In this document: positions 21,001 to 40,822 of the stretch, in pieces
Position numbering within the stretch: position 1 is the first letter of the stretch
Layout: each line of letters begins with the position of its first letter
Assembly: GCA_043798985.1 (NCBI GenBank)
Contig: JAZDOE010000002.1
Span: 22,500 to 86,499, forward strand
Direction: 5' to 3'
Origin: Candidatus Falkowbacteria bacterium
Lineage (GTDB): Bacteria > Patescibacteriota > Patescibacteriia > UBA11705 > JACRDX01
DNA: 64,000 nucleotides
Program-made: the position numbers and the translations under genes
The notes under the pieces: model-generated
Seen by the model: only the letters and a program-made list of their open reading frames with translations
The model's database searches: none
Told to the model about the DNA's origin: nothing

Positions 21001-24000
21001 GGTGCTTTCACATACGCGTCAACACAACGCGTGCGCTCTGCTGTCGCTTCGTCTGGCTCACAATCATTACCCGCAAAATCTGTAAAATTATCTGGTATAT
21101 CTTTTTCTCCTTCTCCGTGTTTTTCTTCTCCCATCAATTGCCACAAACAATCTTCAAACTTTGGCTTAAATAATGCAATATCCTTGCACTCGTCTGTCCA
21201 GTCATCCTGCAAATGTGCCGCATAAGTCACTGACTCCTGTAATGCTCCAATCATCTTGAAATAGGTCTGTTGTCCACAAGCAGCCTCAACGTCTTTTACG
21301 ACTGGGCTGCACTCCTGCTTCGTTGCCATTGGATATTGAAACAACGCTGGCTCAATACAATAATAATTGCCAGAATCTGCTGGCGGAACATAGCCGGCAT
21401 CCGCAGAATAATTATTCAAATCCAATGTCCCTGACGGGACATCAACAGGATACCATGACAAACACGGATGCTGGTCTTTTTTGCCATAAACAATATTCGT
21501 AGAATCTTTTTCCAGACAATAACCATCCCAGCCCTTATAAACGCTTACAGTATCTTTGTCCTTCTTTAGACACTGCCCACAAGTTTCTGCTATGCCCGCA
21601 GTCGGTGGTTTTTCTGTAAGCTTATCAACATAAAAATACGGACCTTGTGGATCGCACATTTTTAAATTTTCAAGTCCTTTCATGCAGTTTTTCGTGCAAG
21701 TCATTGCTCTGCCATCATGATCATTTTCGCAAATCCATTCGGGCTTGCTTTCATTGCCCATCGCAAAATAAAGCTCGCGCGCCTTATTGCCATAAGTCAC
21801 TTTCTGATAGCCACACCCGCAATCAGCAGGATTAACGCAGATAAGAGCGCCGCCATAATCCTCTTTGTTTCCTTCACCTGATGATCCGCCCGTTAACTTC
21901 AAAACTGAACCCGGGAATGGTGAATTTTCCTCTGGATACGCGCGGCAACTCCCATAAGCCTTTGGTACTGGAGTATTCAATTTTGTGCCATCAACATTTT
22001 TCACACACACCTTATCTTTTTCAGCGCAAATAAAATCATTGGATGCAATATTATCATTATCAGCCGGGCACACCTTGCCAGCGCCGCACGATGGCCCGAC
22101 AAAAACCAATCCATAGCCATAGTTCTCTGCTCTTTCCGCGGCTTTCAACGTGTGCAAAGGATATTGTCCGGGCACAGTATAGCCCGCGTATTCTATTCCA
22201 TCAAAACCAGTATTGCGCTTTGTATATTGAGGGGGTGAAAATGCTGAAACATTTTTATAATCGTCTTCTGAAATGTACACCTCAATCTCTGAACAAGTTT
22301 CAGTTCCATCTGCCAGTTTTGTGCACAAACCCAAAACATCGCATTTCTTTTCATACTGATTCCTCTGCGAAATCCATTCCCAATGTCCGCCAACGCATGT
22401 GTACCATTCTTTGCACTGTCTTTCTCGTATAACTTTCAAAATCGTATTTGAATCATAGGCGTTTCTATATTGCAATGGCGCGCATAGCGTGTTATAAGCT
22501 CCAGTTGCATCTGGGGGCGTGGGTGTACATTTTGGTTCTTTCTGTATTTTCGACGTGCATAAGCATTCTTTTATTTCAAACGGATTAACAAATGTCGTCA
22601 AGCAATAACCGCTATTCGCTATAGTTTGCCCTTGCAAATCTGCTAAATCTTCAAGCATACATTGCTTGAATTCCGGGCACGCTGGCACTGGGCATTGGGT
22701 CAAAGCTGTGTCTATGTCTGCCTTGCCAACTGGCGCAATGACCGCGTAATTCTTTGCCGCGCTATTCAAATACGTTTGCGCTGACGCAAAACCAAGTTGA
22801 GGATTGCTTGTGTCATTAAACAGCACACAACCTTTAAGCTGGCTCACACCATTGCCGCAGGATTTTTTATCCAAAACTTCATCATTCAAATAATAATATG
22901 GCCGCCCAACAGGATTCTGCGACTTGTCACTCGGGTCAACGAATGCTGTGCATTTGTCATATTTATTTTGGCAAATACCGGCCCAGCCCGTAAAATCCGC
23001 GTCAGTGACACGCAACAAATTATTCACGCCATCTTGATAATATTGCTTGGCCTCGCATGAAATAGGCTTGCCCTTCACGTCTTTGTCGTATTTTGCAAAC
23101 CAACCAGTAACCGTGCTTACAGAACCATCGTCTGCTGTTTGCTCAACCTTTTTCCATTCGCAAACTTGCTCACCCGGGTCAAACAAGTACAGTGTTTTGT
23201 TGTCAGTTGTCGCAAAGCTTTCACACCCCAAACCGCTGTATTGGCACAAAGTTTCTACAAATTCGTCAGGATCAACTTTAAAATAAACTTCGTTCCAGCT
23301 TGTTTCCGGCGTCTGGTTGCCGCCATTAGTGTAACAAATGCCATCTGCTTCGCTCCAAATGCCATTAATCTTCGTGCATTTGGCTTTATCGGTAAGTGGC
23401 TTTAATTTGCCTTCTGAATTTAAACTCGGAGTTCCAAGCGCCGTGCAACCTTCGTTATCTTTTGAGCATTGCACGCTTTTGTCATTGACTAAATAAATCA
23501 ACTGGTCAGCTTTTATTGTTAAATAATTTCCTTCCCAACATTTATTGGTTTTCATATCCCAGACATCGCCGGCGAGTAAACAAAGCTCCTTGCTCGTCTT
23601 GCCAATGCCAGAACCTCCCGCGCACGGAAACGTCTGACAGTTACCCAAAACCCCAGCCGTACACCAATATAAGTTAGTCGCACTCGGAAGATCTTTTTTA
23701 AACGCATTAAAAATCAAAGGATTATTCTTGTCGCACAACGCTTGAAGGTTAGCTTGCGTGATTTCTTGCTGTTGCGGCGTTCCCTGCAAAAATTTTTCCG
23801 AGAACGGATTGTCAGAATTATGCTTGTCAATAAACGCCTCACAACCAACCGCGACAATCGGGCAAAGTTTTGTAAAACTCTTTAAGAAATGAGTGCCGCC
23901 AACGCGATCCTTGTATTCAGCACAGCCAATCATTGCCTGCGGCAAAATCTTATTGTCCAAAGTCTGATTGCAAATCGCTGGCACAGTGTTAATCGCTGTT

Positions 24001-27000
24001 TGTTTCAACAAATAATATGTATCAACGGTAGTGTAAAGTTTAATATCATCAAGCCACAACTTGGCGTCCGCGCCAAATTGCTTTTCTAATTTCAAAGTCA
24101 ATTTTTTAATATCCGCTAAAATATCAGCGCCCACAAAAAAGTCTTTTGTATTATAATAATGCCATTCATTGTTATTTTGCAAAGTGACAGCTGTATTATT
24201 CTGGAACGATTTGCCCGCATCGCCCAAAACCTTTACACCGACTATTGCCTGCGCGTCTTTTGCCAAAGTATGCTTCGCCCAAAAACTCAAGCGATAATGT
24301 GTGCCAGCGAAAATCTTGCCTGTCAAATCATTTTCAGTTGATTGAACGTTAATGTCCAGCAACAAAGAATGCCCGCCAGAATAAAGCGACTCTGAACTAA
24401 CAACACCCGGCTTCCAAGCTTGATAGGTTGCGCCAATTGGCTCAAATTCCAAACACTTTTTTGTGCTATTCTGCCAATAATATCCAGCGTAACTGCACAT
24501 CTCTGCTTTTGTTTTTTCTTGCGGAATATTGTGTTCAAGGAACTTACAAATTCCTTTCGCTGCGTCCCACGAGATTGGGTTCACAATAACAGAGTCAGCG
24601 TCAACATAATATGTTTTTGCTGGATTACATAAAGCATCTTGAACATTGATTTCTACTGGAACTTTAATGGCTTCTTGCTCAAACGTCGCGTTTAACACTG
24701 ACTCAACATTGCCGGCCTGCGAACCTTGATATTCGCGGCAACCCGCGTTCGTTTTGCTACACACCCTTCCTTCTTTTGGAATTGCCATATAGACGCAAGC
24801 TTCATCTTCCCAGCTTCCGCCAAAAGATTCGCAATCTGTTTTATTCCCAATTGTACGACGATATGGATGGCAATCTACTGAACAAGTGATTGTTTTTGTA
24901 TATAAATGGTATGATTTTTTACCAGTGTCAGAATAAAATTCACGGCAATCTGAAACTTTTTTGTTTGCCAAATTTTGATTATAAATTGTTTGGTTGCAGA
25001 ACGTGGAATCATCGTTCGTAGTAATATCTGGCTGACCATTTTTGTCCTCATCCCGCAAAGCATAGGTAAGCAACTGATAACCGCTTACATCAGACCCTGT
25101 CCATGTGTAAAATGGGCTGCACTTTGGATCGCTTTTTTCATCAGGAACTTCCGGGTTATTGTCCGGCACTGGCCTATAGCACAACCGCAATTCAGAATAA
25201 TATTCCTTGCCCTCGCCGCCTTTTTCCACAACCTCCAAATTCGTAAATTCGTCGCATCCTGCCTGTTCAGCCGAACAAGTCTGCGCTGTTTGCGGAATCA
25301 TGTAAAAAGGAAAAATATTAGCTTCAAAGTTTGACGCCATTTGCTCAAAAACATCATAGCCCGCGCAGGTTGACGGACAATAATCATAATAACTTGGCAC
25401 GCCAACAACTGACACGTTGGTTTGCTTATTTGTAAATTGCTCGCAACCAACCTCGTCAGCGCTGCACATTTTCGCGAATTTTCCGCAAGCATTCGCGTCA
25501 TCATCAATCTTAATATTTTTTCTCAAATACGGCGTTCCAACTACTCCCGCAATATCTTTGCCAGCGTCATCTATCATGTTATAGCATTGATAATAATCTG
25601 GCGCGCGTTTCAAAAACGCTGCGCCGCCTTCGCCATATGGTTTAAACTTTGACGCAGTATATCCGTACAAAAACGGATCTATTTCCTCAATCATTGCCGC
25701 GTCAACATTAATAGTGCCTGTGCCATCAGAAGTCGAGAACGCCAAACGCAAACTATTTACATAGGGCTTTGTTTCAATAACAATATATTTTCTAATCCAC
25801 TGATTTTTAGGAGTCGCATTATTCCAAACATTGTCGCTATCTTTCACCATTCCATCAAAAACCGTGCCATTATCCTTACTGCAACGCGCGTCCAATTTCC
25901 ACGTGCCTGTCAACTCTCCCGGAATAAGAACATACCCAGAAAAAGCAAAAAACCGCGGAATCGGCTGTGGCGCGATCTTTATTGTATCTACTGGGTTGTT
26001 TCCAACCTGCAACCCTGCCCCGTTTGGGTTTATGCTCAAAACCTGAACTTTTATTGCTTGCGAGCCAGAAAAGACCGTATCTTTTATTATTGTCAAAGTT
26101 GCTTTGTTTTGAACAGAATTCCAACCCGGCGTTACGGAACCAGCGCTCGTGTCTTCAAAATCAGCATTTGGCAAAATATTTAAACCAATGCCCGGCTTTT
26201 CTTCAATAAAATTGGAACAACCCTCGGCGCTTGGCGCGCAAGTTTTTTCCGTAAGCTTTGCGTTGGCTAACAATTTGTATTGCTCATCCTGCGACCAATT
26301 GTTTGCGTTTTTCCACGCGCTATACCATTTACAACCAACATTTTGTTCATTGCAAGTTAAACTGTCCTCAATCAAAGTATTTTTTAAATAATCAAAAGCT
26401 TTGTTGTCGCGCCTGACTAAACTCAAACAACTGTCATACTGGCCCAAACATTTCTCACCATCCAATTTCCAAACGTTTTCCTCGGCGCGGCAATAACCCC
26501 AGCCGCCAACGCATTTTCCATTTTCATCAACGCGCACGCAATCCTGCGTATCAACACAAACCTCTTGCCTCGAATCACCGCCTTTGGCGTACAACATATC
26601 ATTATATCCTTGCACGCGGCAGCGCTGAAGCGGGGCCATTAACAGCCAGTTCGGGTCAACCAAATGATACCAAGAACTATTTTGATCATAAAAACCTTTT
26701 ATTGCCTCGCCCAAAGTGACTGGCGTGCCTTTTTGCTCTGCTATTTTTGCTGCCATTTCCCAACCAACCGGCAAAATGCGAGCTTTGCGCAATTTCACCA
26801 AATTACCATAGCAATACCCCTGCATGTAGCACTCGCTATTGGTGTTTTTTTCAACATCCGCAGTAAGCGGCCAATCTGGATTCAAATCTTTTTGGTCAAT
26901 CGCTTGTTGAACTGTCAATGCCTTGCCAGAAGACGATTCTGCGACAGCATCATAAAAATTCTCATCTAACACGCAATTATTTATGCTCCGAATATTGTTT

Positions 27001-28163
27001 CCAGCTGCGCTGGCATTCGGACAAAACATGAATTCTTCAAGCAAATTGATTTCTTTATAAGAATACGCGACATTAACGGTCTTGAGCGCCAGAATCGCTT
27101 TTTCCGTGCCTTTTTCTATATCATAAACTTTTTCTTTTGGATTATACGACTCGCTTGCGCTGGCAAATCCGCGCATAATCGCTTTGCGGATCGCTTCCAT
27201 AATTCCTCTGGACATCAAAGTGTTCACAAAAGTTGAAAGCATTTGTTCAGGAATATCTTCTATCACACTTGTCGCAACATCATACGAACTTTCCGTAACT
27301 GATTCTGATCGCACAATATCTCTCTCTGCCATGCCACTTGTGACGCTTGCCGGAGCTACAACCTTGGTTCCGATCTGATTCTTTTGCACTTTCCATCCAC
27401 GCGCCTCCTGCCGTTCTTTTTCTTTCGCATCCTGCTCTTCCGCGGCTTGCGCCAAAATCTGGTCATTAAAAGTCAAATAAAGACCAAACGGATTTTTCGT
27501 TGGCGCGAATGCCAAAGCAACCGTATCAAGCGCTGTAAGCGAAGCCGCTTCTGGACTCTTAAATTTCTCCTTCCATTCATCAGCAAAATTTTCCCAATTA
27601 TCAAGTACATTGGTTGGAGTACAATATGGCTGCGGTCGCGGCATCAAATCGTGCATTTGTCCCAAATTGGTTGTAAGCCAAATTTTAAAATCAAGTTTTG
27701 GCGCGCAAATGTCAAAGCCAGTCGCGGCATAAATTCCTTCCGCGATATATTCAATCACATTGCCGGCGGCGTATTCATATTCGCTTTTCAACATTTCTTT
27801 CCATCCTTGCGTTTCAAACAATGGTCCCTTGCCCCAATCACCGGTCGCGATCATATCAACCGCTGACTCTGCCGCGCTCTTTGCTAAATACAACGCGACA
27901 TTGCGCAACGTCACAGACGCGGTCAAAACCATTGTTTTCCAAAGTTCATCTTCAACTCTTGTCTCAACTTTATCTTTTATTTTTTCAGCCTGATCGCCAG
28001 TATGATAAATCTGCCGCTGCGTAAAAGCGAATTGATCAAAAACAACTCCCCCAACCTGCGCCTTTGCCGGCATAACGGAAACAAAAATAGAAAGCAAAAA
28101 TATTGCCAAAACTCCAGTGATTATAACTTTGTATCTTGAACCCAATATCATATATTGAAACAT
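18012..28163 (-). CDS. giant secreted cysteine-rich protein (3383 aa)
   Basis: single uninterrupted ORF, N-terminal signal peptide, Cys-rich throughout; plus-strand ORFs inside are spurious. Confidence 0.8.
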   Translation of the reverse strand: MFQYMILGSRYKVIITGVLAIFLLSIFVSVMPAKAQVGGVVFDQFAFTQRQIYHTGDQAEKIKDKVETRVEDELWKTMVLTASVTLRNVALYLAKSAAESAVDMIATGDWGKGPLFETQGWKEMLKSEYEYAAGNVIEYIAEGIYAATGFDICAPKLDFKIWLTTNLGQMHDLMPRPQPYCTPTNVLDNWENFADEWKEKFKSPEAASLTALDTVALAFAPTKNPFGLYLTFNDQILAQAAEEQDAKEKERQEARGWKVQKNQIGTKVVAPASVTSGMAERDIVRSESVTESSYDVATSVIEDIPEQMLSTFVNTLMSRGIMEAIRKAIMRGFASASESYNPKEKVYDIEKGTEKAILALKTVNVAYSYKEINLLEEFMFCPNASAAGNNIRSINNCVLDENFYDAVAESSSGKALTVQQAIDQKDLNPDWPLTADVEKNTNSECYMQGYCYGNLVKLRKARILPVGWEMAAKIAEQKGTPVTLGEAIKGFYDQNSSWYHLVDPNWLLMAPLQRCRVQGYNDMLYAKGGDSRQEVCVDTQDCVRVDENGKCVGGWGYCRAEENVWKLDGEKCLGQYDSCLSLVRRDNKAFDYLKNTLIEDSLTCNEQNVGCKWYSAWKNANNWSQDEQYKLLANAKLTEKTCAPSAEGCSNFIEEKPGIGLNILPNADFEDTSAGSVTPGWNSVQNKATLTIIKDTVFSGSQAIKVQVLSINPNGAGLQVGNNPVDTIKIAPQPIPRFFAFSGYVLIPGELTGTWKLDARCSKDNGTVFDGMVKDSDNVWNNATPKNQWIRKYIVIETKPYVNSLRLAFSTSDGTGTINVDAAMIEEIDPFLYGYTASKFKPYGEGGAAFLKRAPDYYQCYNMIDDAGKDIAGVVGTPYLRKNIKIDDDANACGKFAKMCSADEVGCEQFTNKQTNVSVVGVPSYYDYCPSTCAGYDVFEQMASNFEANIFPFYMIPQTAQTCSAEQAGCDEFTNLEVVEKGGEGKEYYSELRLCYRPVPDNNPEVPDEKSDPKCSPFYTWTGSDVSGYQLLTYALRDEDKNGQPDITTNDDSTFCNQTIYNQNLANKKVSDCREFYSDTGKKSYHLYTKTITCSVDCHPYRRTIGNKTDCESFGGSWEDEACVYMAIPKEGRVCSKTNAGCREYQGSQAGNVESVLNATFEQEAIKVPVEINVQDALCNPAKTYYVDADSVIVNPISWDAAKGICKFLEHNIPQEKTKAEMCSYAGYYWQNSTKKCLEFEPIGATYQAWKPGVVSSESLYSGGHSLLLDINVQSTENDLTGKIFAGTHYRLSFWAKHTLAKDAQAIVGVKVLGDAGKSFQNNTAVTLQNNNEWHYYNTKDFFVGADILADIKKLTLKLEKQFGADAKLWLDDIKLYTTVDTYYLLKQTAINTVPAICNQTLDNKILPQAMIGCAEYKDRVGGTHFLKSFTKLCPIVAVGCEAFIDKHNSDNPFSEKFLQGTPQQQEITQANLQALCDKNNPLIFNAFKKDLPSATNLYWCTAGVLGNCQTFPCAGGSGIGKTSKELCLLAGDVWDMKTNKCWEGNYLTIKADQLIYLVNDKSVQCSKDNEGCTALGTPSLNSEGKLKPLTDKAKCTKINGIWSEADGICYTNGGNQTPETSWNEVYFKVDPDEFVETLCQYSGLGCESFATTDNKTLYLFDPGEQVCEWKKVEQTADDGSVSTVTGWFAKYDKDVKGKPISCEAKQYYQDGVNNLLRVTDADFTGWAGICQNKYDKCTAFVDPSDKSQNPVGRPYYYLNDEVLDKKSCGNGVSQLKGCVLFNDTSNPQLGFASAQTYLNSAAKNYAVIAPVGKADIDTALTQCPVPACPEFKQCMLEDLADLQGQTIANSGYCLTTFVNPFEIKECLCTSKIQKEPKCTPTPPDATGAYNTLCAPLQYRNAYDSNTILKVIRERQCKEWYTCVGGHWEWISQRNQYEKKCDVLGLCTKLADGTETCSEIEVYISEDDYKNVSAFSPPQYTKRNTGFDGIEYAGYTVPGQYPLHTLKAAERAENYGYGLVFVGPSCGAGKVCPADNDNIASNDFICAEKDKVCVKNVDGTKLNTPVPKAYGSCRAYPEENSPFPGSVLKLTGGSSGEGNKEDYGGALICVNPADCGCGYQKVTYGNKARELYFAMGNESKPEWICENDHDGRAMTCTKNCMKGLENLKMCDPQGPYFYVDKLTEKPPTAGIAETCGQCLKKDKDTVSVYKGWDGYCLEKDSTNIVYGKKDQHPCLSWYPVDVPSGTLDLNNYSADAGYVPPADSGNYYCIEPALFQYPMATKQECSPVVKDVEAACGQQTYFKMIGALQESVTYAAHLQDDWTDECKDIALFKPKFEDCLWQLMGEEKHGEGEKDIPDNFTDFAGNDCEPDEATAERTRCVDAYVKAPNEEKCPNGYFPVFGPPGEPTLDSSDPKQSDSLEYKCEQQNEKSSKKGQDKEAKFECGMFCVPYGSKLNITQQRVQDLENPEHADEMWEQFETYKIAEHNGKTCFPGMYYNSPVSVTSLWDLSSVQIDNDSTADADKFFSTLYIPYRYCEGPGYPVQSTGFEYTGYPFSEVMKKLEDVNQFDYGLGCYEVAQVTEGGKGNDPLTQVVAWTDRIQSEKKLTDIVAPVVIGGDQFGFYKATQVSDFGSMNLKLDALVDAKQKATIESDVMDLIELTYCVAGNTLTLPTSYTATGTAECAGQLYGVAVSDEEGDAIEGAEGRGKSYAEFEAIAPKPSSCTEDSHCYLNDVKPICDRTDIKSQACPTNDAGALIEADVKAYWLWRDGCADLAGDITSVCPTIQQAKAISDYQQSERGQSVSYLGFINNEFKYWKHTKTENYGMPGEKPIFEEAEPFGGQCDNIVLCRIGGAHQGDKVQVQGAKLIFCETPEQWIKIGYPEGKSLDHPEYIEFEPALGCKKNKTPNDTGNQCNMGFHFILCADADTAKVDLGYKMQGSILDIDGKEIDSKPYYPSQTISSWFDDSLGGSVLTPYCTQTGVLEEEYSLGECKDFNLMCNADSNCQQFECDKTANQCVVKGGETANTIKIKDAPDFSFVGKGLLNKDSVTLRLGNLFRNIFQAYKYTVKIDNTPRAKQFVQTVDSAGIQGNLTITDALLGLDISYEPVGFANLTDDLVGTDTFAPMVAGHIKAEDGTDRAILNTLAIKTDVGLYLSGTVPEKGANKVLAAQLEFYAWADRDHMPLRRVMVDFGNGADVIGAGNSNQRYKNHKPWCGDEAGAGTLECKDYEGLMCKDAGDCELAGAAAACEVVESSFGNSSGACMEGYFSYFGLYQCKKKQIDTLPTCVDGATTTTASSDYVVAHPDYAKGCYDPAYIHDFGEEGACVYFPRVQVLDNWDWCNGSCEGAGKGCYGSVKNDSAANCKDSIAKAWTYFNGKIIVKP

Positions 28164-28208
28164 TGTGATTTCGTGCTTCGTGCTTGTTTCGGATTTAGTG
28201 CTTCGTGC
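28164..28208. repeat. AT-rich repeat module (AATGTT.. / TTCGTGCTTCGTGCTT) between TSP3 protein gene and giant gene
   Basis: same motifs as 11119-11266. Confidence 0.6.
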
Positions 28209-28985
28209 TTATTTTCCTGCTGTTTGTTTCAACGCATCCTGATAAAGTTGCTGTAATGTCGCGTCATCAATTCCATTCAGCATTTCATCGCTCACTCCTT
28301 GCTGTTTTAACAATGCTTTTAATTCTGCTGTTGAATATTGCTTGCCCGCCGACGAGGCGGGCGTCGTTCCAGTTACCTGCCCCGCCAGCGGCGCAGTTTC
28401 GCCAGATCCAATGTTCAGCGCGTCCTGATAAACTTTCAACAATTCAGAATCGCTGATTTTTTGCAAATCAGCTTCTGTGAACGCGCCTGTCGCGACCAAT
28501 GCTTGGCGGATCTGGTCAGGCGTCGCGTTTGCCAAGTCAGTCAAGTCTGTCGCGCTAGAACCGGCCGTATTGGTTGTTGCCAACACTTCTGACGTAAAAC
28601 AATTTTGACCTTTTGGACAATTTGGATCATTGCCAGAATCTATTTCAGTTTTATCGTCAAAACTATCGCTGTCGCTATCTGCCAAATATGGGCTTGTGCC
28701 GTAAATACTCAATTCGTCATAATCGCTGATTTTGTCCTGATCAGTATCCATTGTTTTCAAATCCGCGTCAGAAGTTATCGCAGTATTGCTCGTGGTTTGC
28801 TGTGCTGTTTTTCCGGAGTTTGGCAACTCTAAACCAATAATGCTGCGAAATTCCCAGACGCTCAAACCAATCACCGCAATACCAATCACGCAGACAAAAA
28901 TCAACGAAAAAATTTGATGCCGCTCTAATCGCCGCGTCTGTGGTTGAAACGATTCCTGCCCCTCGGGAAGCGCCATGTCTTCCAT
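28209..28985 (-). CDS. membrane-anchored protein with thrombospondin type-3-like Ca-binding repeats (DxDxD)
   Basis: one TM helix, DSDSDSFDDKTEIDSGNDPNCP motif; immediately upstream of giant gene, same strand. Confidence 0.6.
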   Translation of the reverse strand: MEDMALPEGQESFQPQTRRLERHQIFSLIFVCVIGIAVIGLSVWEFRSIIGLELPNSGKTAQQTTSNTAITSDADLKTMDTDQDKISDYDELSIYGTSPYLADSDSDSFDDKTEIDSGNDPNCPKGQNCFTSEVLATTNTAGSSATDLTDLANATPDQIRQALVATGAFTEADLQKISDSELLKVYQDALNIGSGETAPLAGQVTGTTPASSAGKQYSTAELKALLKQQGVSDEMLNGIDDATLQQLYQDALKQTAGK

Positions 28986-29063: not shown

Positions 29064-29910
29064 TTAAATTTTGAATTTCGAAATTCTTATCCAATTTTCC
29101 ACGCTTAAATCTTCAGCTCTCGCGGTTTCTTTCAAACCAGCGGTCAACAACATTTTTTTCGCTTCGTCTTTTGTAATTCCCAGTCCTGCGGACAAATTAT
29201 TTTGCAGTTGTTTTCTTTTTGCCGCGAATCCCATTCGCGCGAGTCTGAATAAATTCTTGGCCTTCAACTGTTCAGCGTTGTCCAATCGTTTAATGCCTGC
29301 TAATTTTATAATTGCTGAATCAACTTCTGGCGTTGGCAGGAAATTTCCAGCCGCGACATCAGCGACAATTTCTGGTCGCGAATAATACTGACAAGAAAGC
29401 CCTAGCAAATTCATGTCCCCGGGTTTTGCGACGATTCTTTGCGCAACTTCTTTTTGAACCAGCAAAACCATTGCGGTCAACGGTGTTTCAACTTCCAAAA
29501 ATCTGCGCAAAAAATGGCTGGTAATTTGATATGGAATGTTCGCGACAATTTTATATGGTTCACCCTGAAAAAAATCTTCAATGTCCTGTATCGGTAATTT
29601 TAAAATATCCGCCTCAACAAGTTTATATTCAACATTTTTGCGACCAACCAACAAAGATCTCATTTCCTGTTTCAAAACAAAAACCAGCGTCCGATCAATC
29701 TCAACTGCCAAAACTCGTTTCGCGCGTTGAATCAACTCTTTTGTCAAAACTCCCAGCCCCGCGCCAACTTCCAAAACATTGTCTGTCTTTTTCAAATCCG
29801 CGGCATCAACAATTTTTTCCAAAATCGCAGGATTAACCAAAAAATTCTGCCCCAAATTATGTTTTGGCTTTATTCCGTATTTTTTCATTATCAACCCGAT
29901 ATTTTGCATA
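29064..29910 (-). CDS. ksgA: 16S rRNA (adenine1518/1519-N6)-dimethyltransferase
   Basis: GQNFL motif, SAM-binding VLEVGAGLGVLT; start placed at M9 of track ORF, which coincides with the end of the duplicated segment and avoids overlap with hicA. Confidence 0.85.
29807..29910. repeat. direct repeat copy 1 (104 bp, ksgA 5' end); copy 2 at 32155-32256 with 1 mismatch
   Basis: direct comparison. Confidence 0.9.
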
Positions 29911-29913
29911 TAC

Positions 29914-30132
29914 TTAATCCTCAAAAAAATCACTTTCTCCCAGCCCCGATTGAAGCAAAATTGATTGAAATGTCCCGTACGGAATTTCCTTTTTTGTCAT
30001 TTTAAGGGTTACGTTTTTCGTCGGGTTTCCTATTTTACGAAATCGCGCATGCGATCCCTTTTGACGCACAAAAAAGAAGCCCTTTTCATTAAGGACTCTC
30101 AATATCAAACTGAGTAGAACTGGCTTAGGCAT
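29914..30132 (-). CDS. hicA: HicA-family toxin (mRNA interferase)
   Basis: FVRQKGSHARF...VTL...IPYGTFQSILLQSGL matches HicA pattern. Confidence 0.7.
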   Translation of the reverse strand: MPKPVLLSLILRVLNEKGFFFVRQKGSHARFRKIGNPTKNVTLKMTKKEIPYGTFQSILLQSGLGESDFFED

Positions 30133-30343
30133 ACTTTACTGCAAGCGACACCAAATCAGGTCTCTCCACCTTATTAATTTTGGAAACAGGAATATCTTCC
30201 AAATGTAATTCCAACGCTTCTTGCAAGCTATCCAGCGCTTCTTTCTTCGTATCACCAAAACTGGAAATTGCAGTATTCAGATTCCACGCAACGTAATTTT
30301 TCCCCTCTTTCCAAACAACATTTTTTAGCTCTATTTTATGCAT
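30125..30343 (-). CDS. hicB: HicB/UPF0150-family antitoxin
   Basis: SSFGDTKKEALDSLQEALELHLED pattern; 8 nt overlap with hicA. Confidence 0.6.
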   Translation of the reverse strand: MHKIELKNVVWKEGKNYVAWNLNTAISSFGDTKKEALDSLQEALELHLEDIPVSKINKVERPDLVSLAVKYA

Positions 30344-30531
30344 ATATTTTTCAATGCTTATATTTTAATGTTACCAAAACAGAAGAAACAAGTCAAATGA
30401 TTACTTAAACGCGATAATTTGATACCCAAATTTTTCATGTCAGAACAACGGCCGCGCCGGAAAAAGGCAAAGCCAACAAAGTGCTGATTAACTTGCTAAG
30501 CGAATATTTAGATGTGCCGAAATCATTGAAA

Positions 30532-31038
30532 TTATTTTAGCAAATCGCTATACGATCCATTAATTCTTTTATACTTTCCAAAATTCAATAAACCAATCGC
30601 TCCTTGATGCTCTTTTTGCGCTTGCTCTAAAGAAATATTTTTCACGACTGTTTCAAGCTCAAGAAAATTGCCCAATTTATTCACCCTGTCTAAATGGATC
30701 CTGGTGTTTTTATAAATCCACAACTCTCTTTTCTTTTTTACAACAACTTTCACTCCATAAGCTCGACCAAAAATCCGCTTCATAGTGTTAAGCTGGCACG
30801 GTTTAAGCCGAAACATTTCATAATCTGAAATCTTAGATCGCTTTTTATCAGAACGCTGATAAAAGAGTATTTCAAATTCTTTGTTATTTATTTCCCTGAT
30901 CTTCAATCTCCCTTTTTGACAAGTATAATATGTATCAATTTGCCGTAAAACACCAATGGGTTTTGCGCTATTTTTTTTTAACAATTTTTTTATTTCATTA
31001 AAATTTTTTACTGCAACTTTTAGTTCAATGTTTTTCAT
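30532..31038 (-). CDS. CYTH-domain protein (class IV adenylate cyclase / triphosphate tunnel metalloenzyme-like)
   Basis: IELKVAV...RLKIREI...ELETVV beta-strand pattern typical of CYTH. Confidence 0.55.
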   Translation of the reverse strand: MKNIELKVAVKNFNEIKKLLKKNSAKPIGVLRQIDTYYTCQKGRLKIREINNKEFEILFYQRSDKKRSKISDYEMFRLKPCQLNTMKRIFGRAYGVKVVVKKKRELWIYKNTRIHLDRVNKLGNFLELETVVKNISLEQAQKEHQGAIGLLNFGKYKRINGSYSDLLK

Positions 31039-31856
31039 ATGGTTTTAAGATATTTAATGCCTTCTGCGGCGCCCTCAAATAAGGGTTTATTATACCTTTG
31101 TAGAATTTGTTTTAATAACTCCATTTGGCCAGATTTTTCAATCCTATAGAAAATATTTCCTTGCGGCATCCAGTGTGGTTGCAATTTTTCAATTTTCAGC
31201 CCCGACAAATCAGTTAGCAAAGGATGCTCTAAACTTTTTAAATATAAAGGGCCAGAATAAAAGCCGAAACAGCAATCCTTAGTTTTGGCAACGACCTCTT
31301 CCAGCTCCTCATCTGACAATGTTGGCAAAAGAGGTCTTAAGGCAACAAGTGTCTTTATTCCGGCATCAAAAGCTCGCCTCAAGGTTTCAATCCTTTTTTC
31401 AGGATTAGGAACTTTTGGCTCCCATTTTCCCGCAGAATCAGTACATAAAATTGACACGGAAAAAGCTAATATATTTCCTTGCTCGCTTACTCTTTCTGCA
31501 ATCTCTTTCAGTCTCCTAATATACTCTTTTGATAAAGTCAATTTTGTAATTACTGAGATATCCCTTTTCTTTTGCGCTAATCTCTCAAGAATTGCCAATG
31601 CTTCTTTTTTATATTGTAAAAATTCCGTATCGCAACCAAGCATTATTAATTTTATTTCATCGGGTAGCCGATCAATTAGTTCAAACTGTTTTTCCGACAG
31701 ATATGCCACTCCCCTTTGCTGATTAAAATTAAGATCGTCAACAAAACAATATCGACAGTTTAGCGGACAACTTAGCTGGGAATAAGTTAAAACTCTATCT
31801 TTATCAAATTTTAAACCATGTTCTTCAAATTCACTTTTTTCAAATTTCATAATCAA
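31035..31856 (-). CDS. radical SAM protein, SplB-like family (paralog of 13822-14622)
   Basis: CPLNCRYCF motif; shared C-terminal pattern with 13822 protein (ETL..G......RP.LP.L.D). Confidence 0.7.
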   Translation of the reverse strand: MIMKFEKSEFEEHGLKFDKDRVLTYSQLSCPLNCRYCFVDDLNFNQQRGVAYLSEKQFELIDRLPDEIKLIMLGCDTEFLQYKKEALAILERLAQKKRDISVITKLTLSKEYIRRLKEIAERVSEQGNILAFSVSILCTDSAGKWEPKVPNPEKRIETLRRAFDAGIKTLVALRPLLPTLSDEELEEVVAKTKDCCFGFYSGPLYLKSLEHPLLTDLSGLKIEKLQPHWMPQGNIFYRIEKSGQMELLKQILQRYNKPLFEGAAEGIKYLKTI

Positions 31857-31958
31857 TAAAATTCAATTACTCTCCACTATACAGAATAACCTATTTTGAT
31901 TAATACGTAAAATCCTCTTAGCGCGAGAAACTTGAGGGTTAGACAATAAAACAAAAAA

Positions 31959-31985
31959 CCCGCTCAACAATGTGAGCGGGTTTTG
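31959..31985. terminator. bidirectional Rho-independent terminator (CCCGCTCA...TGAGCGGG flanked by A/T tracts)
   Basis: seen directly. Confidence 0.55.
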
Positions 31986-32154
31986 ATTATCAAACCGGAT
32001 AAACCGGCCACACGGAATTTAGCAATGTTTCTTTGCCCGGAAGCTCCGGCAAATACCTGACACTCATAAACTCTGAACGCGTCAGTCCCGACACTGAACC
32101 CTAATCAAGATTGCGAATGGCCGGAACCATTCCTTCTGCAGTAACAGTGTCTCA

Positions 32155-32256
32155 ACAATTTTTTCCAAAATCGCAGGATTAACCAAAAAATTCTGCCCCA
32201 AATTATGTTTTGGCTTTATTCCGTATTTTTTCATTATCAACCCGATATTCTGCATA
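32155..32256. repeat. direct repeat copy 2 of ksgA 5' end (encodes MQNIGLIMKKYGIKPKHNLGQNFLVNPAILEKIV then diverges)
   Basis: direct comparison with 29807-29910. Confidence 0.9.
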
Positions 32257-32267
32257 ATTACATAGCG

Positions 32268-32330
32268 CGCGAAGGAATGTCATTTCGAACCCTTAAAAAG
32301 GGTGAGAAATCCCTTCGCATAATTGCCTTA
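32268..32330. repeat. compact palindromic element GCGAAGGAATGTCATTTCGAACCC...GGGTGAGAAATCCCTTCGC
   Basis: related to 17830-17935. Confidence 0.55.
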
Positions 32331-32588
32331 CTTAAACGCGATGATCTGATATCCGTATTTTTCAACATCCTCCCTTGACCAAAATTTCATGTCTTTTGTC
32401 TTTGCGACATAAGTCACTTCTTTTTCAAGCGTCCTGCCGGTAAATTCTTTTGTTTCAGGATTCCACTCCTGCAAAACCAAAATGTCGCCCTCGTTGCATT
32501 CCCAATCTGCAAGTCGTAATTCGTAAGTTTTTTTGCCTTCCAGAATCTTTTGAAAATACTCTGGCCAAACCTTTTTTTCGTGTCGCAT
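32328..32588 (-). CDS. ASCH/DUF3850-like PUA-fold protein
   Basis: small beta-rich ORF with ASCH-like pattern; a degraded copy of its 3' end lies at 30403-30440. Confidence 0.55.
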   Translation of the reverse strand: MRHEKKVWPEYFQKILEGKKTYELRLADWECNEGDILVLQEWNPETKEFTGRTLEKEVTYVAKTKDMKFWSREDVEKYGYQIIAFK

Positions 32589-32648
32589 ATTGATCGCGCG
32601 CCATTCAGATAAAATCTGGATGGCATTTTTTATTCCATCTTCAAACTA

Positions 32649-32882
32649 TCAATAAACACATGTCGCAAACATTCCATTTCCAATCGGCAACTCAAACTTT
32701 CCAATACCTATCACGATTCTTTTGCTCTTGCATACCATCAAATTATTACCACTCGCGTCAGAAGTCACTGTTTCCAGTCTAAGTATTCCCAACAAACAAA
32801 GAAGAACGACAATCCCAATAATAATCAAGGCCACAATGCCTACTGTTTTTATTACTGAAAATTTTGAATTTTTCTTAATCAT
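32649..32882 (-). CDS. small hypothetical membrane protein
   Basis: one TM helix; low information. Confidence 0.35.
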   Translation of the reverse strand: MIKKNSKFSVIKTVGIVALIIIGIVVLLCLLGILRLETVTSDASGNNLMVCKSKRIVIGIGKFELPIGNGMFATCVY

Positions 32883-32884
32883 AT

Positions 32885-33730
32885 TTATTTTTTCTTTTTC
32901 CGTGGCTTACTCAATAATAAAAAATTCCGTCCCGTCACTACTCGCTTCCCTGTTTTTTGTTCAAGCGCGACTCGCGCGTCTTTTGCTATGTTCCCGCCCT
33001 TTTGCGCGGGAATTTTATTTTCTTCAAGCCCCTTTGTCTTCATTGTCTCGGCAATTTGTCTTGTGGAAAGTTCCGCCAACGCAGTGAATATCAATTCCGC
33101 GTCTGTCATGTGATCGCGCAAATTCTGCGTTTTAAGATTTTTAAAATTTTTATGTTCCTTAATTGATAAGCCGCTCCATTCTTCATGAATAATGTTTGTC
33201 AGGATTGCATATTCCGCTTGTCTCTTAACATCATGGTTTTGCCAATAATCAGTCAATTTATTCCGAACCTCTTGCCCCATCATCCGCTGTTGAATCCATT
33301 TTTTGTCTCGTCCTTGTTTTTGCCAATATTCTCGCGACCGATTCAGCGCTTTTTCCGGATCAGCCATTTCTTGCATTCGCTCGTAGCCAACCTTCGCGAG
33401 CCAAAGTTTAATCCGCTCCGCCTTTTTACTCGGAACAGACTGAACTAATCTCAGAATTGTCTCTACGTTGGCAATGTCTGTTTCGCGCATTTTCCCGTCT
33501 TGCGCTACCATTTTCAACCGGTGACATTTTGTCACCACTTCACTTCCCTCGTTTTTCAACCGTTCTGCCAGCTTGTTCCAATACTTTCTCGCCATCTGAA
33601 AATCTGTTTGTCCTATCAACGCCGCGACAATATCAATCACCGAAAAATACCACGTCTCGGTTTTTTCATCATAATGTCGACGAATTTTAAAATTCTCAAA
33701 AATCGCCAATGAACTTAAATTATCGCGCAT
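32885..33730 (-). CDS. Bro-N domain plus DinD-like (DNA-damage-inducible protein D) protein, phage-associated
   Basis: N-terminus FENFKIRRHYDEKTETWYFSVIDIVAAL (Bro-N pattern); C-terminal half similar to E. coli DinD. Confidence 0.7.
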   Translation of the reverse strand: MRDNLSSLAIFENFKIRRHYDEKTETWYFSVIDIVAALIGQTDFQMARKYWNKLAERLKNEGSEVVTKCHRLKMVAQDGKMRETDIANVETILRLVQSVPSKKAERIKLWLAKVGYERMQEMADPEKALNRSREYWQKQGRDKKWIQQRMMGQEVRNKLTDYWQNHDVKRQAEYAILTNIIHEEWSGLSIKEHKNFKNLKTQNLRDHMTDAELIFTALAELSTRQIAETMKTKGLEENKIPAQKGGNIAKDARVALEQKTGKRVVTGRNFLLLSKPRKKKK

Positions 33731-33741: not shown

Positions 33742-33948
33742 TTATTTTGTGCCAATTTTCTTGCGACATTTTTTACTGCCGCACATGCATTCAAACGGCA
33801 CATCTGATTCAGGCAATGCCTCGGCCTGTTCTCTCGTTAAAATCTTTTTGGGTCTCCATTTGATTACAATGTCGCCCTTTTTAAAATCCCGCGCAGCAAA
33901 AACTCCCTTGCCCTGAATTTTTGATTTTTTGATAATAATAGCTTGCAT
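33742..33948 (-). CDS. mini SET-domain protein or fragment (N-SET GKGVFA plus post-SET CxCxxxxC only)
   Basis: IQGKGVFAARDFKKGDIV and FECMCGSKKCRKK motifs; lacks NHSC core. Confidence 0.5.
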   Translation of the reverse strand: MQAIIIKKSKIQGKGVFAARDFKKGDIVIKWRPKKILTREQAEALPESDVPFECMCGSKKCRKKIGTK

Positions 33949-35069: not shown

Positions 35070-35912
35070 TTATTTATCCGCATTAAACATCTGTTTCGCC
35101 CAATTCTCCACCTTGTCATTATCCTCAATTACAAATTCCTGCCCGATAGCTGCCGACTGAAAATACCCACGCCTTGTCCAAGATTGTGCCGAATGATAAC
35201 TTATTTCTACTTTTTTAAATAAAGCTGGCAAATCCCATCTTGACTTTGACATCCCATCTTTTGTAAGAACTAAACTATTGTCAAAGCTAAATACGCCGGC
35301 GCCGGACTTATTTTCATCCCAACTCAACTTATCCCTTGCAATATATATGGTATTAGTAGGATTTTTCTTTCTATCCTCATTTTTCGCATGAGGATGCGGG
35401 CGCATCCATGCAGGAATTTTCGTTGTAGTATTCACTTGTAATGTTTGGCCAATTTGAAGGTAGCCCCAAATAATATGCAAATCTGGTGCAGATCTATCAA
35501 ATTGCAGAATCCCATTTTTAACGACCGTTTGCTTGAACCAACCAAAAAATAAAAACAAATCACCTTTTTTCACTCCCTCATTTTGCAAATGCACTTGCGC
35601 CTGATTAATTTGTCCGAAACAGGGTTTCCAATTTTTACTTCTTTTGATGCTCCCTCTGTATATATCTGGATCAAAGTGGCATTTCGTGTTTTTAGTCAGC
35701 CCACAGACACTTCCATTATGCCTTATTTTAATTTCCAGCTGCTTCATTAAATCAAAATAGGTTTGTCCATCATCTATTTTTAAATCAGAATACTTATCAC
35801 AATCTTGGTCAGACGGAATTGGCAGAGAAATCATTTTGCCATTCGGCAGAATTGGGCTTGGGTATCCGCCCCAGGCCGAATCAAATCCTTTGCGACTTAA
35901 TATGACTTTCAT
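35070..35912 (-). CDS. hypothetical protein (280 aa), conserved-looking N-terminus SRKGFDSAWGGYPSPI
   Basis: clean ORF; family not recognised. Confidence 0.55.
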   Translation of the reverse strand: MKVILSRKGFDSAWGGYPSPILPNGKMISLPIPSDQDCDKYSDLKIDDGQTYFDLMKQLEIKIRHNGSVCGLTKNTKCHFDPDIYRGSIKRSKNWKPCFGQINQAQVHLQNEGVKKGDLFLFFGWFKQTVVKNGILQFDRSAPDLHIIWGYLQIGQTLQVNTTTKIPAWMRPHPHAKNEDRKKNPTNTIYIARDKLSWDENKSGAGVFSFDNSLVLTKDGMSKSRWDLPALFKKVEISYHSAQSWTRRGYFQSAAIGQEFVIEDNDKVENWAKQMFNADK

Positions 35913-36044
35913 TTTATTAGTAATCTAATTTTTCAACCTCGCTTCAATGAACGCGGCAATGTCGCCACCGCAAAATTATCCACAATCCATTGACGTTAAA
36001 CCTTTTTATATGCTATACTTCTCTTGTAGGAGTAATCCTATTAA

Positions 36045-36749
36045 TCACGCGGTCCCGCCCAAAGCGGGATTTTCGCTTTTCAGATAAACCCTCTTACCAG
36101 TATACAATCTCCCAAAATCAATATATTTGTCCTTAATAACGTGCAATTCTTCTGCAACTTTTCCGCGAACGCCAACAACCCCAATTTTCTTTTCCTTAAT
36201 CTTCAAGCGCGCCAACGGCGCGCACATATCAGAATCACCAGAAAACAGCATAATCGCGGTAAATTTTTCCGCATCATCCAACATGTCTATGGCCATTTCA
36301 ACATCAAAATTACATTTGGGATTCTCTATAATGACGCCCGCTTTATGTAGCGCATTAATTAACTCTTGAATCTTATTTCTAATTGCTCCATCAAATAATG
36401 TTATTGTTTTGCGCTGGAAAAACAATCCCTCATTAATTTCTTTGGAAATGAATTTCATTGGTTTACACTTTAAAATTGCGCCGGTTCTTTTTATCCTATC
36501 ATGAAAGGCCTCGGAATTCTTTAAATCTCTGCCATTTTTTCCATAATAAACCTTGACCTCTTTAATGCTCGGAAATGCAAAAAGTTGTTCAATGACATCT
36601 TCTATTCTAAATCTCCAACCCAAAACATTTTGCCAATGAAACATATTCGTCAAGTCCAAATATGCAAAAATAGCGGTTTTCTCGTTTATCCAATCTAAAT
36701 AATCGTTTCTAACAATAAACTTATTTTTAATATCTTGCGGGATTTCCAT
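36045..36749 (-). CDS. NYN/LabA-like (PIN-like RNase fold) domain protein
   Basis: NFDVEMAIDMLDDAEKFTAIMLFSGDSDM pattern typical of NYN domains. Confidence 0.65.
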   Translation of the reverse strand: MEIPQDIKNKFIVRNDYLDWINEKTAIFAYLDLTNMFHWQNVLGWRFRIEDVIEQLFAFPSIKEVKVYYGKNGRDLKNSEAFHDRIKRTGAILKCKPMKFISKEINEGLFFQRKTITLFDGAIRNKIQELINALHKAGVIIENPKCNFDVEMAIDMLDDAEKFTAIMLFSGDSDMCAPLARLKIKEKKIGVVGVRGKVAEELHVIKDKYIDFGRLYTGKRVYLKSENPALGGTA

Positions 36750-36753: not shown

Positions 36754-37914
36754 TTATTTCACGGTATTTTTCAACCTCGCCTCAATGAAATTCTCAATAT
36801 CGCCATCCAATACGGAGTCAACATCTGAAGTTTCAATTTCTGTGCGATGATCTTTGACCATTTTGTACGGTTGCAAAACATACGAACGAATCTGATTACC
36901 CCAACTGGCCTCGGTATACTCGCCACGCAAAGCTTTTTTCTCCTCCTCTTTTTTTGCCTCATTATATTGCCGCACTTTTGATTGCAAAACCCGCATGGCA
37001 ATTTTTTTGTTTTGCGCCTGCGAACGCTCGTTTTGGCAAGTGACAACAATCCCAGTCGCCAAATGAGTAATGCGAACAGCCGAATCGGTTGTGTTCACGC
37101 TTTGCCCGCCATGCCCGCCAGAACGAAAAACATCAACCTTGATTTCATCGTCTTTAATCGCCAACTCCGCGGTTTCCGGAAAAATCGGCAAAACCTGCGC
37201 CAATGCAAACGATGTGTGCCGCATTTTTTCCGCGTCAAAAGGAGAAATACGCACCAACCGATGCACACCAGCCTCGCATTTCAAATAACCATAAGCAAAA
37301 TCACCATCAACTTCAACTTCAACGCTTTTGATTCCAGCTTCAGCGCCGCTGGATATCCACAAAATTTTTGTCTTCCAGCGGCGCTTTTCACAAAATCGCA
37401 AATACATTCGCAAAAGCATTTCCGCCCAATCCTGCGCGTCAGTGCCTCCGGCGCCGGAGTTAATTGAAAAAATCGCGCCATAAGAATCATATGGCGCAGA
37501 AAGCAACAATGATGTTTCCATCTTTTTAAAATCCGCTTCAATCTTTTGCGCCTCAATCACCCAATCTTCCGGCAGCTCGTCCTTATCACCAGCCCGCTTC
37601 GCAGGAGCTCCCGCTTCGACCGCGAAGCGAGGCGAGTCAGCCTGCCTCGCCGAGTCAAGGCGGGCGAGGCGAGCCAGTTCCAAAAACGCGGCCGTGCGTT
37701 CGCGCAATTCCAGCCACGCGCTAATTTCTTTTTCCAGCCGCGCCAGCTCTTGGTTCAGCGCGGCTGCTTTTTGCGCGTCTTTCCAAAAATCCGGCCGCGT
37801 CATTTTTTCATGTAATTCAACAATCCGCTTTTGCTTTTCATCCAATTTCAAAATCCCAATCGCTTGTTTGATTTTTTCAGCTATCTGCTCAATTGTTTTA
37901 TATAATTCAGTCAT
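36754..37914 (-). CDS. prfB: peptide chain release factor 2, single continuous frame (no programmed frameshift), with 26-aa in-frame GC-rich repeat insertion
   Basis: SPF and GGQ motifs; ORF continuous from ATG. Confidence 0.9.
   Translation of the reverse strand: MTELYKTIEQIAEKIKQAIGILKLDEKQKRIVELHEKMTRPDFWKDAQKAAALNQELARLEKEISAWLELRERTAAFLELARLARLDSARQADSPRFAVEAGAPAKRAGDKDELPEDWVIEAQKIEADFKKMETSLLLSAPYDSYGAIFSINSGAGGTDAQDWAEMLLRMYLRFCEKRRWKTKILWISSGAEAGIKSVEVEVDGDFAYGYLKCEAGVHRLVRISPFDAEKMRHTSFALAQVLPIFPETAELAIKDDEIKVDVFRSGGHGGQSVNTTDSAVRITHLATGIVVTCQNERSQAQNKKIAMRVLQSKVRQYNEAKKEEEKKALRGEYTEASWGNQIRSYVLQPYKMVKDHRTEIETSDVDSVLDGDIENFIEARLKNTVK
37591..37680. repeat. GC-rich (about 70%) repeat module inserted in-frame in prfB (encodes ARLARLDSARQADSPRFAVEAGAPAKRAGD)
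   Basis: 38-nt exact match GTCAGCCTGCCTCGCCGAGTCAAGGCGGGCGAGGCGAG to reverse complement at 41929-42007; related modules at 62861-63010. Confidence 0.8.
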
Positions 37915-38979: not shown

Positions 38980-39298
38980 AAAATTCCTCTTTTTGGTTTG
39001 CCAGCAAACGCTTACGTTCTTCCTCGTCCTTACAATCAAACAAACGGCATCTGGTATTCTTACAAATATCTGGTCTATTTTCATAATCTTTACATTTACC
39101 ACGTTGCTCGTCAAATTCCTTGCAAGAATAAAAATCCAACTTGTATCCGTCCGGGCAACTTTCACGCGCATATCGTCCCATGTGTGTAAATTTTTCTTTT
39201 GCTTTTTTATCAAGCTGCGTAAATGCCGGCACTTTTACAGGATTACAACAAAAACTACCGCACTTATTTTCAAAACAAGGATTTTCTTTTTTATTCAT
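38954..39298 (-). CDS. YkgJ/UPF0153-like Cys-rich metal-binding protein
   Basis: CFENKCGSFCCNP motif (CxxCxxCC). Confidence 0.45.
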   Translation of the reverse strand: MNKKENPCFENKCGSFCCNPVKVPAFTQLDKKAKEKFTHMGRYARESCPDGYKLDFYSCKEFDEQRGKCKDYENRPDICKNTRCRLFDCKDEEERKRLLANQKEEFYELYGTKK

Positions 39299-39302
39299 AA
39301 TC

Positions 39303-40496: not shown

Positions 40497-40500
40497 ATAA

Positions 40501-40773: not shown

Positions 40774-40822
40774 ATAATTGTGAAATTATCAATTACCAAT
40801 TTCTAATTTTCAATTTTTGTAG

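Follow-up and report, generated by a model that had tools for sequence, protein, structure and literature searches.

Two apparent alleles of the ASCH-ksgA junction bracket a radical SAM-CYTH gene pair in a Candidatus Falkowbacteria genome

In Campbell-type or homology-facilitated illegitimate recombination, described in Acinetobacter, S. pneumoniae, P. stutzeri and E. coli, a single homologous segment anchors foreign DNA (PMC3240628). Single crossovers with partly homologous circles in E. coli leave duplications of the homologous segment that are 109-950 bp long (PMC3240628). The T6SS (type VI secretion system) arrays of Vibrio are proposed to arise by sequential displacement through homology-facilitated illegitimate recombination, in which orphan 3' ends are left behind (PMC5361080). 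A comparable arrangement is found in a metagenome-assembled genome (MAG) of Candidatus Falkowbacteria, in a window of 64 kb (the whole stretch of DNA analysed here), where an islet between ksgA and an ASCH-domain gene carries a radical S-adenosylmethionine (rSAM) gene and a CYTH gene between two copies of the ksgA 5' end. Patescibacteria account for a large part of bacterial diversity, have tiny genomes and contain few recognisable mobile elements. They are naturally competent and possess genes for homologous recombination (PMC10633639, PMC12455944).

The proteins of the islet are identical, residue for residue, to GenBank MFH0814573-587. Each of them is confined to one contig, of 94,786 bp, in a collection of 15 billion proteins, and an exact look-up of KsgA and ASCH finds no second assembly of the same strain. 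The relatives used for comparison are coded L001, L018, L019/L020/L021 and L022. KsgA of four related lineages is 82-83% identical to that of the window, the lineages being roughly equidistant from one another, and KsgA of a further outgroup is 69% identical.

The two copies of the ASCH-ksgA junction

Based on the comparison with relatives, the window appears to hold two alleles of one junction in tandem, and not one duplicated target. Both alleles contain a 105-nt direct repeat (29806-29910 and 32152-32256), which extends over ksgA codons 1-35 and the 1 nt that precedes the ATG (29909-29907 in the left copy). The copies are identical at 104 of the 105 positions, have a start-to-start spacing of 2346 nt and would arise by chance with a probability of about 1e-60. 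They differ only at 29905/32251, in the third position of ksgA codon 2 and 5 nt away from the homology edge; this codon reads CAA in the left copy, and the right copy, a ksgA stub, retains the ancestral CAG. Since both copies have in common four derived bases that occur in none of four relatives, the stub comes from, or was converted by, the ksgA gene of its own lineage. A shorter repeat is formed by the 3' end of the ASCH/DUF3850 gene, of which the last 12 codons and the stop are present as a remnant at 30401-30437. This remnant matches 32328-32364 at 32 of 37 positions (86%), with the TAA stop ending both, and it is 89% identical to L022 and 84-86% identical to L018/L019, about equidistant from all ASCH genes. 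It is more diverged than the ksgA repeat (5/37 versus 1/105 mismatches, Fisher p=0.005). Both repeats had been reported in the first-pass annotation and are real; the ksgA repeat had been given as 104 bp (29807-29910 and 32155-32256), 1-3 nt short at its edges, and the ASCH remnant as about 80% identical over 30403-30440.

The order of genes in the outgroup L019/L020/L021 is Ddl, HtrA, prfB, BRO, a small open reading frame (ORF), DUF3850, ksgA, a 254-aa protein and a giant protein. L018 has ASCH, a spacer and ksgA, and its spacer aligns with the right-hand spacer of the window. Since ksgA directly follows ASCH in both this outgroup and L018, the adjacency is ancestral, in agreement with the synteny that the first-pass annotation had expected. 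The ancestral order would have been BRO, a small transmembrane protein, ASCH, a 72-nt spacer and ksgA. L001 has a hicB-hicA-ksgA block that is collinear with the left block of the window in a single 1310-nt alignment with 79.5% nucleotide identity, and the homology stops at the hicBA promoter. In L022, ASCH is followed by a ribbon-helix-helix antitoxin and a YafQ/RelE-like toxin and then by ksgA; its ASCH is 93% identical and its ksgA 83.5% identical to those of the window. Among these Falkowbacteria, the spacer appears to serve as a cassette slot, in which toxin-antitoxin (TA) modules with their own promoters replace exactly what lies from the ASCH stop codon to the ksgA start codon, and the junction region as a whole is a recombination mosaic. 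CYTH and rSAM genes as core neighbours of ksgA, an arrangement at odds with an insertion, are seen in none of L001, L018, L019-21 and L022, which carry neither gene at the ksgA site.

The right copy of the junction is the hicBA-less allele (32152-32588). It is cut at ksgA codon 35, and past ATTGTTGA it is unlike every relative. The left copy is the hicBA allele (29064-30437), in which ksgA is intact and the cut lies 37 nt before the ASCH stop. Between the two is 1.7 kb of cargo, comprising a 160-nt scrap, a terminator, the rSAM-CYTH operon and a DUF167 scrap. The right-copy spacer has its orthologue in the L018 spacer, which likewise lacks hicBA, and the copies represent different alleles. The repeat edge 1 nt before the ksgA ATG coincides with the limit of homology between the hicBA allele of L001 and the spacer allele of L018. 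The inner edges of the repeats (the ASCH stop and ksgA ATG-1) are the points at which the alleles become homologous, and the outer edges are the real breakpoints. Both parental arrangements exist in relatives (one in L001, the other in L018 and L019-21), which have about 80% identity to the window and are not conspecifics.

There is an even chance that the 105-bp repeat was left behind by a homology-anchored recombination, through a single crossover or one-sided homology, which stacked the two alleles without a transposase or integrase. The donor DNA would have come from a conspecific strain with the hicBA allele, in which the cargo already lay upstream of hicBA, and would have reached a chromosome lacking hicBA either as a circularised fragment or through one-sided homology. 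One crossover within the first 105 nt of ksgA would give a product of the form A-K-X-K-B, in which the shared segment alone is duplicated. As a consequence, ksgA would be intact behind hicBA, and the old junction would read into a dead 35-codon stub and end at the terminator. If the 105-bp repeats recombined with each other, a circle of 2,346 bp would be released and the ancestral junction would be re-formed. This route seems the most economical.

All islet genes are on the minus strand and a DUF167/YggU fragment is on the plus strand. In the direction of transcription the order is ASCH, the 72-nt spacer, the ksgA stub, 160 nt, the terminator, radical SAM, CYTH, the ASCH remnant, hicB, hicA and intact ksgA. 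The gene calls of the first-pass annotation for ksgA, HicA, HicB-like, CYTH, radical SAM and ASCH are borne out by Pfam and NCBIfam. The intact ASCH/DUF3850 gene (32328..32588, 86 aa) matches PF12961 at 4.5e-19 and has 93% nucleotide identity to L022. It is followed by the spacer of the hicBA-less allele (32257..32327), where a promoter-like match overlaps the start codon and was not used, and by the truncated pseudo-ksgA 5' end (32152..32256), in which 32152 is a true breakpoint. The 57-aa 'hypothetical protein' annotated at 32082-32255 is this ksgA stub.

Joined to codon 35 is the 160-nt stretch of unassigned origin (31990..32151), absent from the first-pass annotation. It has no Rfam match and no similarity in 106 fetched loci, and it is not matched exactly by any viral contig. 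That it might be a riboswitch or a leader for the rSAM operon was considered and rejected, the stretch not being conserved upstream of rSAM homologues; its fold has z=-1.36 without the terminator, which is not significant, and z=-3.8 with it. The terminator itself is an intrinsic-terminator-like hairpin (31955..31984) with a 12 bp stem followed by a T run. It had been called bidirectional, a description that is not supported: it passes a terminator scan on the minus strand alone.

Downstream of the cargo, the ASCH remnant (30401..30437), whose outer (5') edge is a true breakpoint, is followed by a promoter-like site of the hicBA cassette (30368..30396, TTGACT-17-TAACAT with TG), at which the L001 homology stops. 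The hicB-like antitoxin gene (30125..30343, 72 aa) matches PF24113 at 4e-8, carries the NCBI name HicB family antitoxin and has an orthologue in L001. It overlaps by 8 nt the hicA toxin gene (29914..30132; PF07927 4.9e-12, 46.2 bits against a cut-off of 27), and the HicA domain with its adjacent small antitoxin identifies the two as a type II HicAB system. The hicA stop is 4 nt before the ATG of intact ksgA/rsmA (29064..29909), which encodes a 16S rRNA dimethyladenosine transferase of 281 aa (TIGR00755 224.9 bits, cut-off 171; PF00398 9e-54) and begins with the left copy of the 105-nt repeat (29806..29910, codons 1-35 plus 1 nt).

The surroundings of the junction have further features. A stretch of 46-49 nt of the ASCH-ksgA spacer with a small hairpin (32278-32323) recurs inverted, at 82% identity, at 17890-17936, downstream of the gene for a 3383-aa protein. 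L018 has a larger hairpin at the same position of its spacer, and the stretch may be a small repeated palindromic element. Next to the ASCH gene, the 38 nt at 32597-32634 are 100% identical to 9357-9394 of L019, where the flanking genes are only 78-84% identical; this stretch lies downstream of the BRO and transmembrane protein genes and forms a terminator-like hairpin on the plus strand. The ddl gene has moved: relatives L001 and L019 have Ddl, a 91-aa protein, HtrA and prfB, and the window (37918-40786) has the 91-aa protein, HtrA, Ddl and prfB. Two giant ORFs are present (18012-28163, 3383 aa, and 51426-58046, 2206 aa), the first of which adjoins ksgA in all relatives.

The radical SAM-CYTH pair and the recurrence of its signature

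The first gene of the pair (31035..31850) encodes a radical SAM protein of 271 aa with a CPLNCRYC motif (PF04055 3.7e-15, score 56.9, cut-off 29.5). The second (30532..31038), which has a 4-nt overlap with the rSAM stop, encodes a CYTH (triphosphate tunnel) protein of 168 aa (PF01928 2e-17, 64 bits, cut-off 23.2). Convergent with CYTH, and overlapping its stop, is the DUF167/YggU fragment on the plus strand (about 30439..30540; PF02594 E=3.7e-8, 33.8 bits, cut-off 30.9), which covers profile positions 30-58 of 76 and is absent from the first-pass annotation.

The coupling of the two genes is strict. CYTH follows rSAM in 43 of 43 metagenome loci with downstream sequence, and also in a 651-kb Nomurabacteria contig, at a distance of 0-20 nt or with an overlap. 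The pair noted in the first-pass annotation is a real functional unit that behaves as a movable cassette. The rSAM family, with 53-75% identity and lengths of 270-295 aa, is annotated from Patescibacteria lineages only. There is no third conserved partner gene. The neighbours, of which 110 match 135 Pfam families, are mostly housekeeping genes with few defence or TA genes, and those of one locus bear no relation to those of another. Locus-specific direct repeats of 26-211 nt closely flank the pair in 8 of 29 distinct loci, a count that has no matched random-gene-pair control. These repeats usually consist of the 3' end of the upstream gene through its stop (a histidine kinase four times), and are otherwise intergenic or promoter sequences. 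At two loci the repeats (R) separate several cassettes: the L029 array reads histidine kinase, R, AbiEii TA, R, rSAM-CYTH, R, AAA ATPase, R, MNT/HepT, and the L025 array reads MNT/HEPN, R, rSAM-CYTH, R, HicBA, R. Strict pairing, varied sites, bracketing repeats and arrays together make the pair a mobile cassette. In Patescibacteria it appears to be an obligate module of two genes that changes place among unrelated sites of the chromosome, often beside TA modules.

In the arrays (L029 2804-7772 and L025 780-3168), copies of the histidine-kinase 3' end, with or without a terminator, separate the small cassettes. The ATPase cassette of L029 is AAA_14/DUF4143, and the junctions before two of the repeat copies in L029 have the 7-nt string TAAATAG in common. 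In the 651-kb Nomurabacteria contig, L014, a GC-rich repeat of 211 nt (5718-5928 and 7318-7523, 91% identical) brackets the pair and begins at the stop codons of the preceding genes. Two other identities for the pair were rejected: PADLOC, searched for known defence systems, has no match for rSAM or CYTH, and a phage origin is not supported by IMG/VR, whose rSAMs are only 23-24% identical, or by a PHROG match, which is weak.

The rSAM protein belongs to the radical SAM superfamily, as the cysteines of its CX3CX2C motif (C28, C32 and C35) are invariant in 24 homologues. It has no PDB sequence match. Its AlphaFold2 model has a mean confidence (pLDDT) of 91, and the structural neighbours of this model are generic (SkfB, SuiB, spore photoproduct lyase (SPL) and HydE). 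The protein resembles SPL and COG1533 in the CX3CX2C motif, in the name 'DNA repair photolyase' that JGI gives to its homologues and in having SPL among its best structural matches. It differs in that SPL, with a template-modelling score of 0.60, matches no better than SkfB, SuiB or HydE, and in that all NCBIfam scores are far below cut-off, the best being PA0069 (48.7, cut-off 360) and Rv2578c (48.4, cut-off 430). The earlier label 'SplB-like' holds at the superfamily level only, and no curated model of the SPL/COG1533 type scores above its cut-off.

The CYTH protein matches PDB 2dc4 at 4.8e-11. Like the small archaeal-type CYTH proteins or triphosphate tunnel metalloenzymes (PH1819-like 2dc4 and SaTTM 7ns8), it keeps the basic and acidic residues of the tunnel, which are invariant in 35 orthologues together with N3-x-E5-x-K7; the motif differs in being NxExK and not ExExK. 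A class IV adenylate cyclase (CyaB) was rejected, TIGR00318 giving 37.4 bits against a cut-off of 57.95 and ExExK being absent. The CYTH protein probably binds a triphosphate, and the pair probably acts on a triphosphate-bearing substrate, nucleotide or SAM-related. No paper on CYTH with a radical SAM partner turned up in the library that was searched. It is possible, though rather doubtful, that the pair is an undescribed self-contained conflict module of Patescibacteria, addiction- or defence-like and with a substrate that is probably a nucleoside triphosphate or SAM-derived, which would spread as a recombinase-less cassette, duplicate the ends of ordinary genes and accumulate with TA pairs in arrays. 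If so, it would point to a general, homology-addressed shuffling of accessory genes in competent, ultra-small genomes.

The signature of a displaced gene end also recurs in the window itself. In an islet at 11243-15622, the 3' 318 nt of a class II aminoacyl-tRNA synthetase (aaRS) gene (12412-12729) are repeated at 15283-15600 with 94% identity, on the far side of three genes that the copies bracket. This islet consists of the intact aaRS gene (11243-12754), an rSAM-SPASM gene (12874-13815), an rSAM gene matching phrog_13321 (13822-14622) and a DUF5680 gene (14730-15194), followed by a 136-aa ORF (15212-15622) that is the displaced C-terminal fragment of the aaRS. The third place is at prfB, where a 40-nt remnant of the gene's 3' end (35928-35967) has 82.5% identity with the gene's true end (36766-36805) and 90% identity with the end in L001. 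The remnant follows an NYN-domain gene (36045-36749) inserted after prfB. Between it and BRO lie Nmad3 (35070-35912), two unknown ORFs and a SET-domain fragment (33742-33948); in the outgroup L019, BRO comes directly after prfB. The first-pass annotation had regarded the rSAM islets as a recurring SplB-like cassette type, which is true only loosely. What recurs is the insertion signature and not the gene family, as the second rSAM has 33% identity to that of the ksgA islet over 109 aa and is accompanied by rSAM-SPASM and DUF5680, with no CYTH. Other repeats in the window are a 124-nt direct repeat (63153-63276 and 63678-63801, 85%) near its right end and similarities of 50-145 nt that link the intergenic regions at about 11120-11264, 28148-28213, 41511-41637 and 51293-51430.

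Explanations for the bracketing repeats

No transposase, integrase or recombinase is encoded in 29064-33730 or in the 37 other larger ORFs of the window that were scanned, and no inverted repeats are present at the boundaries (29911 / 32151 or 30438 / 32257). ARAGORN finds 0 tRNA or tmRNA genes in the window, and Rfam gives 0 matches at the gathering score, with sub-threshold terminator-like matches only, in 31800-32400. The length of the repeats is not fixed: it is 105 nt here and ranges over 26-318 nt when the signature is followed around the cassette and elsewhere in this genome. In addition, blastn detects no sequence common to the bracketing repeats of the 8 loci that could serve as a shared att core. 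As in genomic islands, the repeats derive from gene ends (ksgA 5' and ASCH 3') and ksgA is intact.

These results bear on the scenario of the first-pass annotation, in which insertion of the cargo duplicated a 214-nt target (37 nt of the ASCH 3' end, the 72-nt spacer and 105 nt of the ksgA 5' end) and hicBA replaced the left spacer later. Part of it stands, in that two overlapping partial copies of ASCH-3'/spacer/ksgA-5' do bracket the cargo; the duplicated pieces are in the right order and orientation for an ancestral ASCH-spacer-ksgA junction, and TA cassettes do swap in and out of the slot. However, the copies are different alleles, transposase, integrase and terminal inverted repeats are all missing, and no enzyme for staggered duplications of about 200 nt is encoded here. 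The late acquisition of HicAB is not supported either. Since L001 carries the same hicB-hicA-ksgA block in continuous alignment, the hicBA-ksgA junction is as old as the L001 split, at about 80% identity, which makes a later arrival of hicBA less economical. The ksgA-5' copies are 99% identical and share derived bases, and the hicBA-ksgA junction therefore long predates the duplication or its last homogenisation. A later swap would also have been anchored on one side by only the 37 nt of the ASCH remnant, and would need a crossover no more than a few bases into ksgA, or else a donor of the same species, to account for the 104/105 identity and the shared derived bases. On balance, the target duplication is unlikely. 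A site-specific process, by which an integrase acting in trans would insert recombinase-less cassettes at att-like gene ends and add one extra copy of the end per event, is quite improbable, even though an intact gene followed by cargo and a displaced gene-end copy is the classical signature of a genomic island. The repeat copies of the L029 and L025 arrays start within about 20 nt of one another, the cassette edges are tight around the pair, and at one locus (L033) a large serine recombinase adjoins it. Against such accretion, the repeats are locus-specific and have no motif (histidine-kinase 3' ends, ASCH, aaRS, prfB, intergenic and promoter sequences) and range from 26 to 318 nt, so that many integrase specificities would be required for one small cassette. 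No integrase is found among the scanned ORFs, and the repeat in the window is at a gene 5' end, with an edge that is the limit of allele homology.

Two alleles would be expected in different strains, and the assembly might have merged two co-occurring strains, one hicBA-less and one with hicBA and cargo, through their shared ksgA 5' end. The source is a MAG with no second assembly of the strain, and the repeat, at 99% identity, is shorter than a read pair insert. A mis-join in the assembly graph, however, yields a strain switch and not a tandem arrangement. At the junction 32151|32152, codon 35 is joined to the unassigned 160 nt, which agree with the true continuation of ksgA over no more than about 8 nt, and the junction must therefore exist in real DNA. 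In addition, the copies differ by one base, and the analogous repeats are diverged, both in the window (94%, 86% and 82%) and elsewhere, including the 651-kb NCBI contig L014 (91%), so they are not k-mer artefacts. An artefact has very little likelihood. The stacking of two alleles by homology-anchored recombination has weaknesses of its own. The donor is hypothetical, neither allele having been found singly in a conspecific strain. The order of events is not unique, since a duplication followed by allele replacement, or a later gene conversion, fits the same end state. The edges of the cassette at other loci lie very close to the pair (a leader of 12-50 nt and a tail of 0-30 nt), which random fragment capture does not predict and which could point to a site-specific process in trans. 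The 99% identity of the 105-bp repeat in a short-read MAG also leaves room for an assembly error, which is possible, though unlikely.

Comparison with described systems

The window suggests a recombinase-free route for accessory genes in Patescibacteria, whose gene gain is poorly understood. Within 64 kb the signature occurs three times, and roughly one in four of the other loci that were examined show it around the same cassette. If it is general, duplicates of gene ends could be used to locate accessory cassettes and insertion hot spots in genomes of the candidate phyla radiation (CPR). The signature also draws attention to rSAM-CYTH, an unstudied pair of enzymes whose coupling is strict.

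The islet resembles integrase islands and cis-mobilisable elements at gene 3' ends (PMC3191183, PMC5426353) in its direct repeats of gene ends, in its intact target and in the possibility of tandem accretion. The microcin H47 island is likewise recombinase-less and has imperfect direct repeats at its flanks (PMC3191183, PMC5426353). The islet differs from these elements in that no integrase is found, the repeats differ from locus to locus and their length varies more than tenfold. In the T6SS effector-immunity arrays of Vibrio cholerae and the orphan arrays of Rhs and contact-dependent inhibition systems (PMC5361080), a conserved upstream anchor is retained, and new modules displace older ones downstream, which become orphan 3' fragments. 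The L029 and L025 arrays and the ASCH, prfB and aaRS remnants of the window are similar. However, the cassettes here are unrelated small modules (TA pairs, rSAM-CYTH and an ATPase) and do not belong to one toxin-immunity family, and ordinary genes with housekeeping or sensor functions serve as anchors, among which the window has a gene 5' end. Campbell-type recombination differs from the present case in that the event here is deduced from sequence only, in an uncultivated CPR bacterium. The likeness lies in the crossover of a circle, which duplicates a segment on both sides of the insert, needs no dedicated recombinase and can be reverted through the repeats (PMC3240628).

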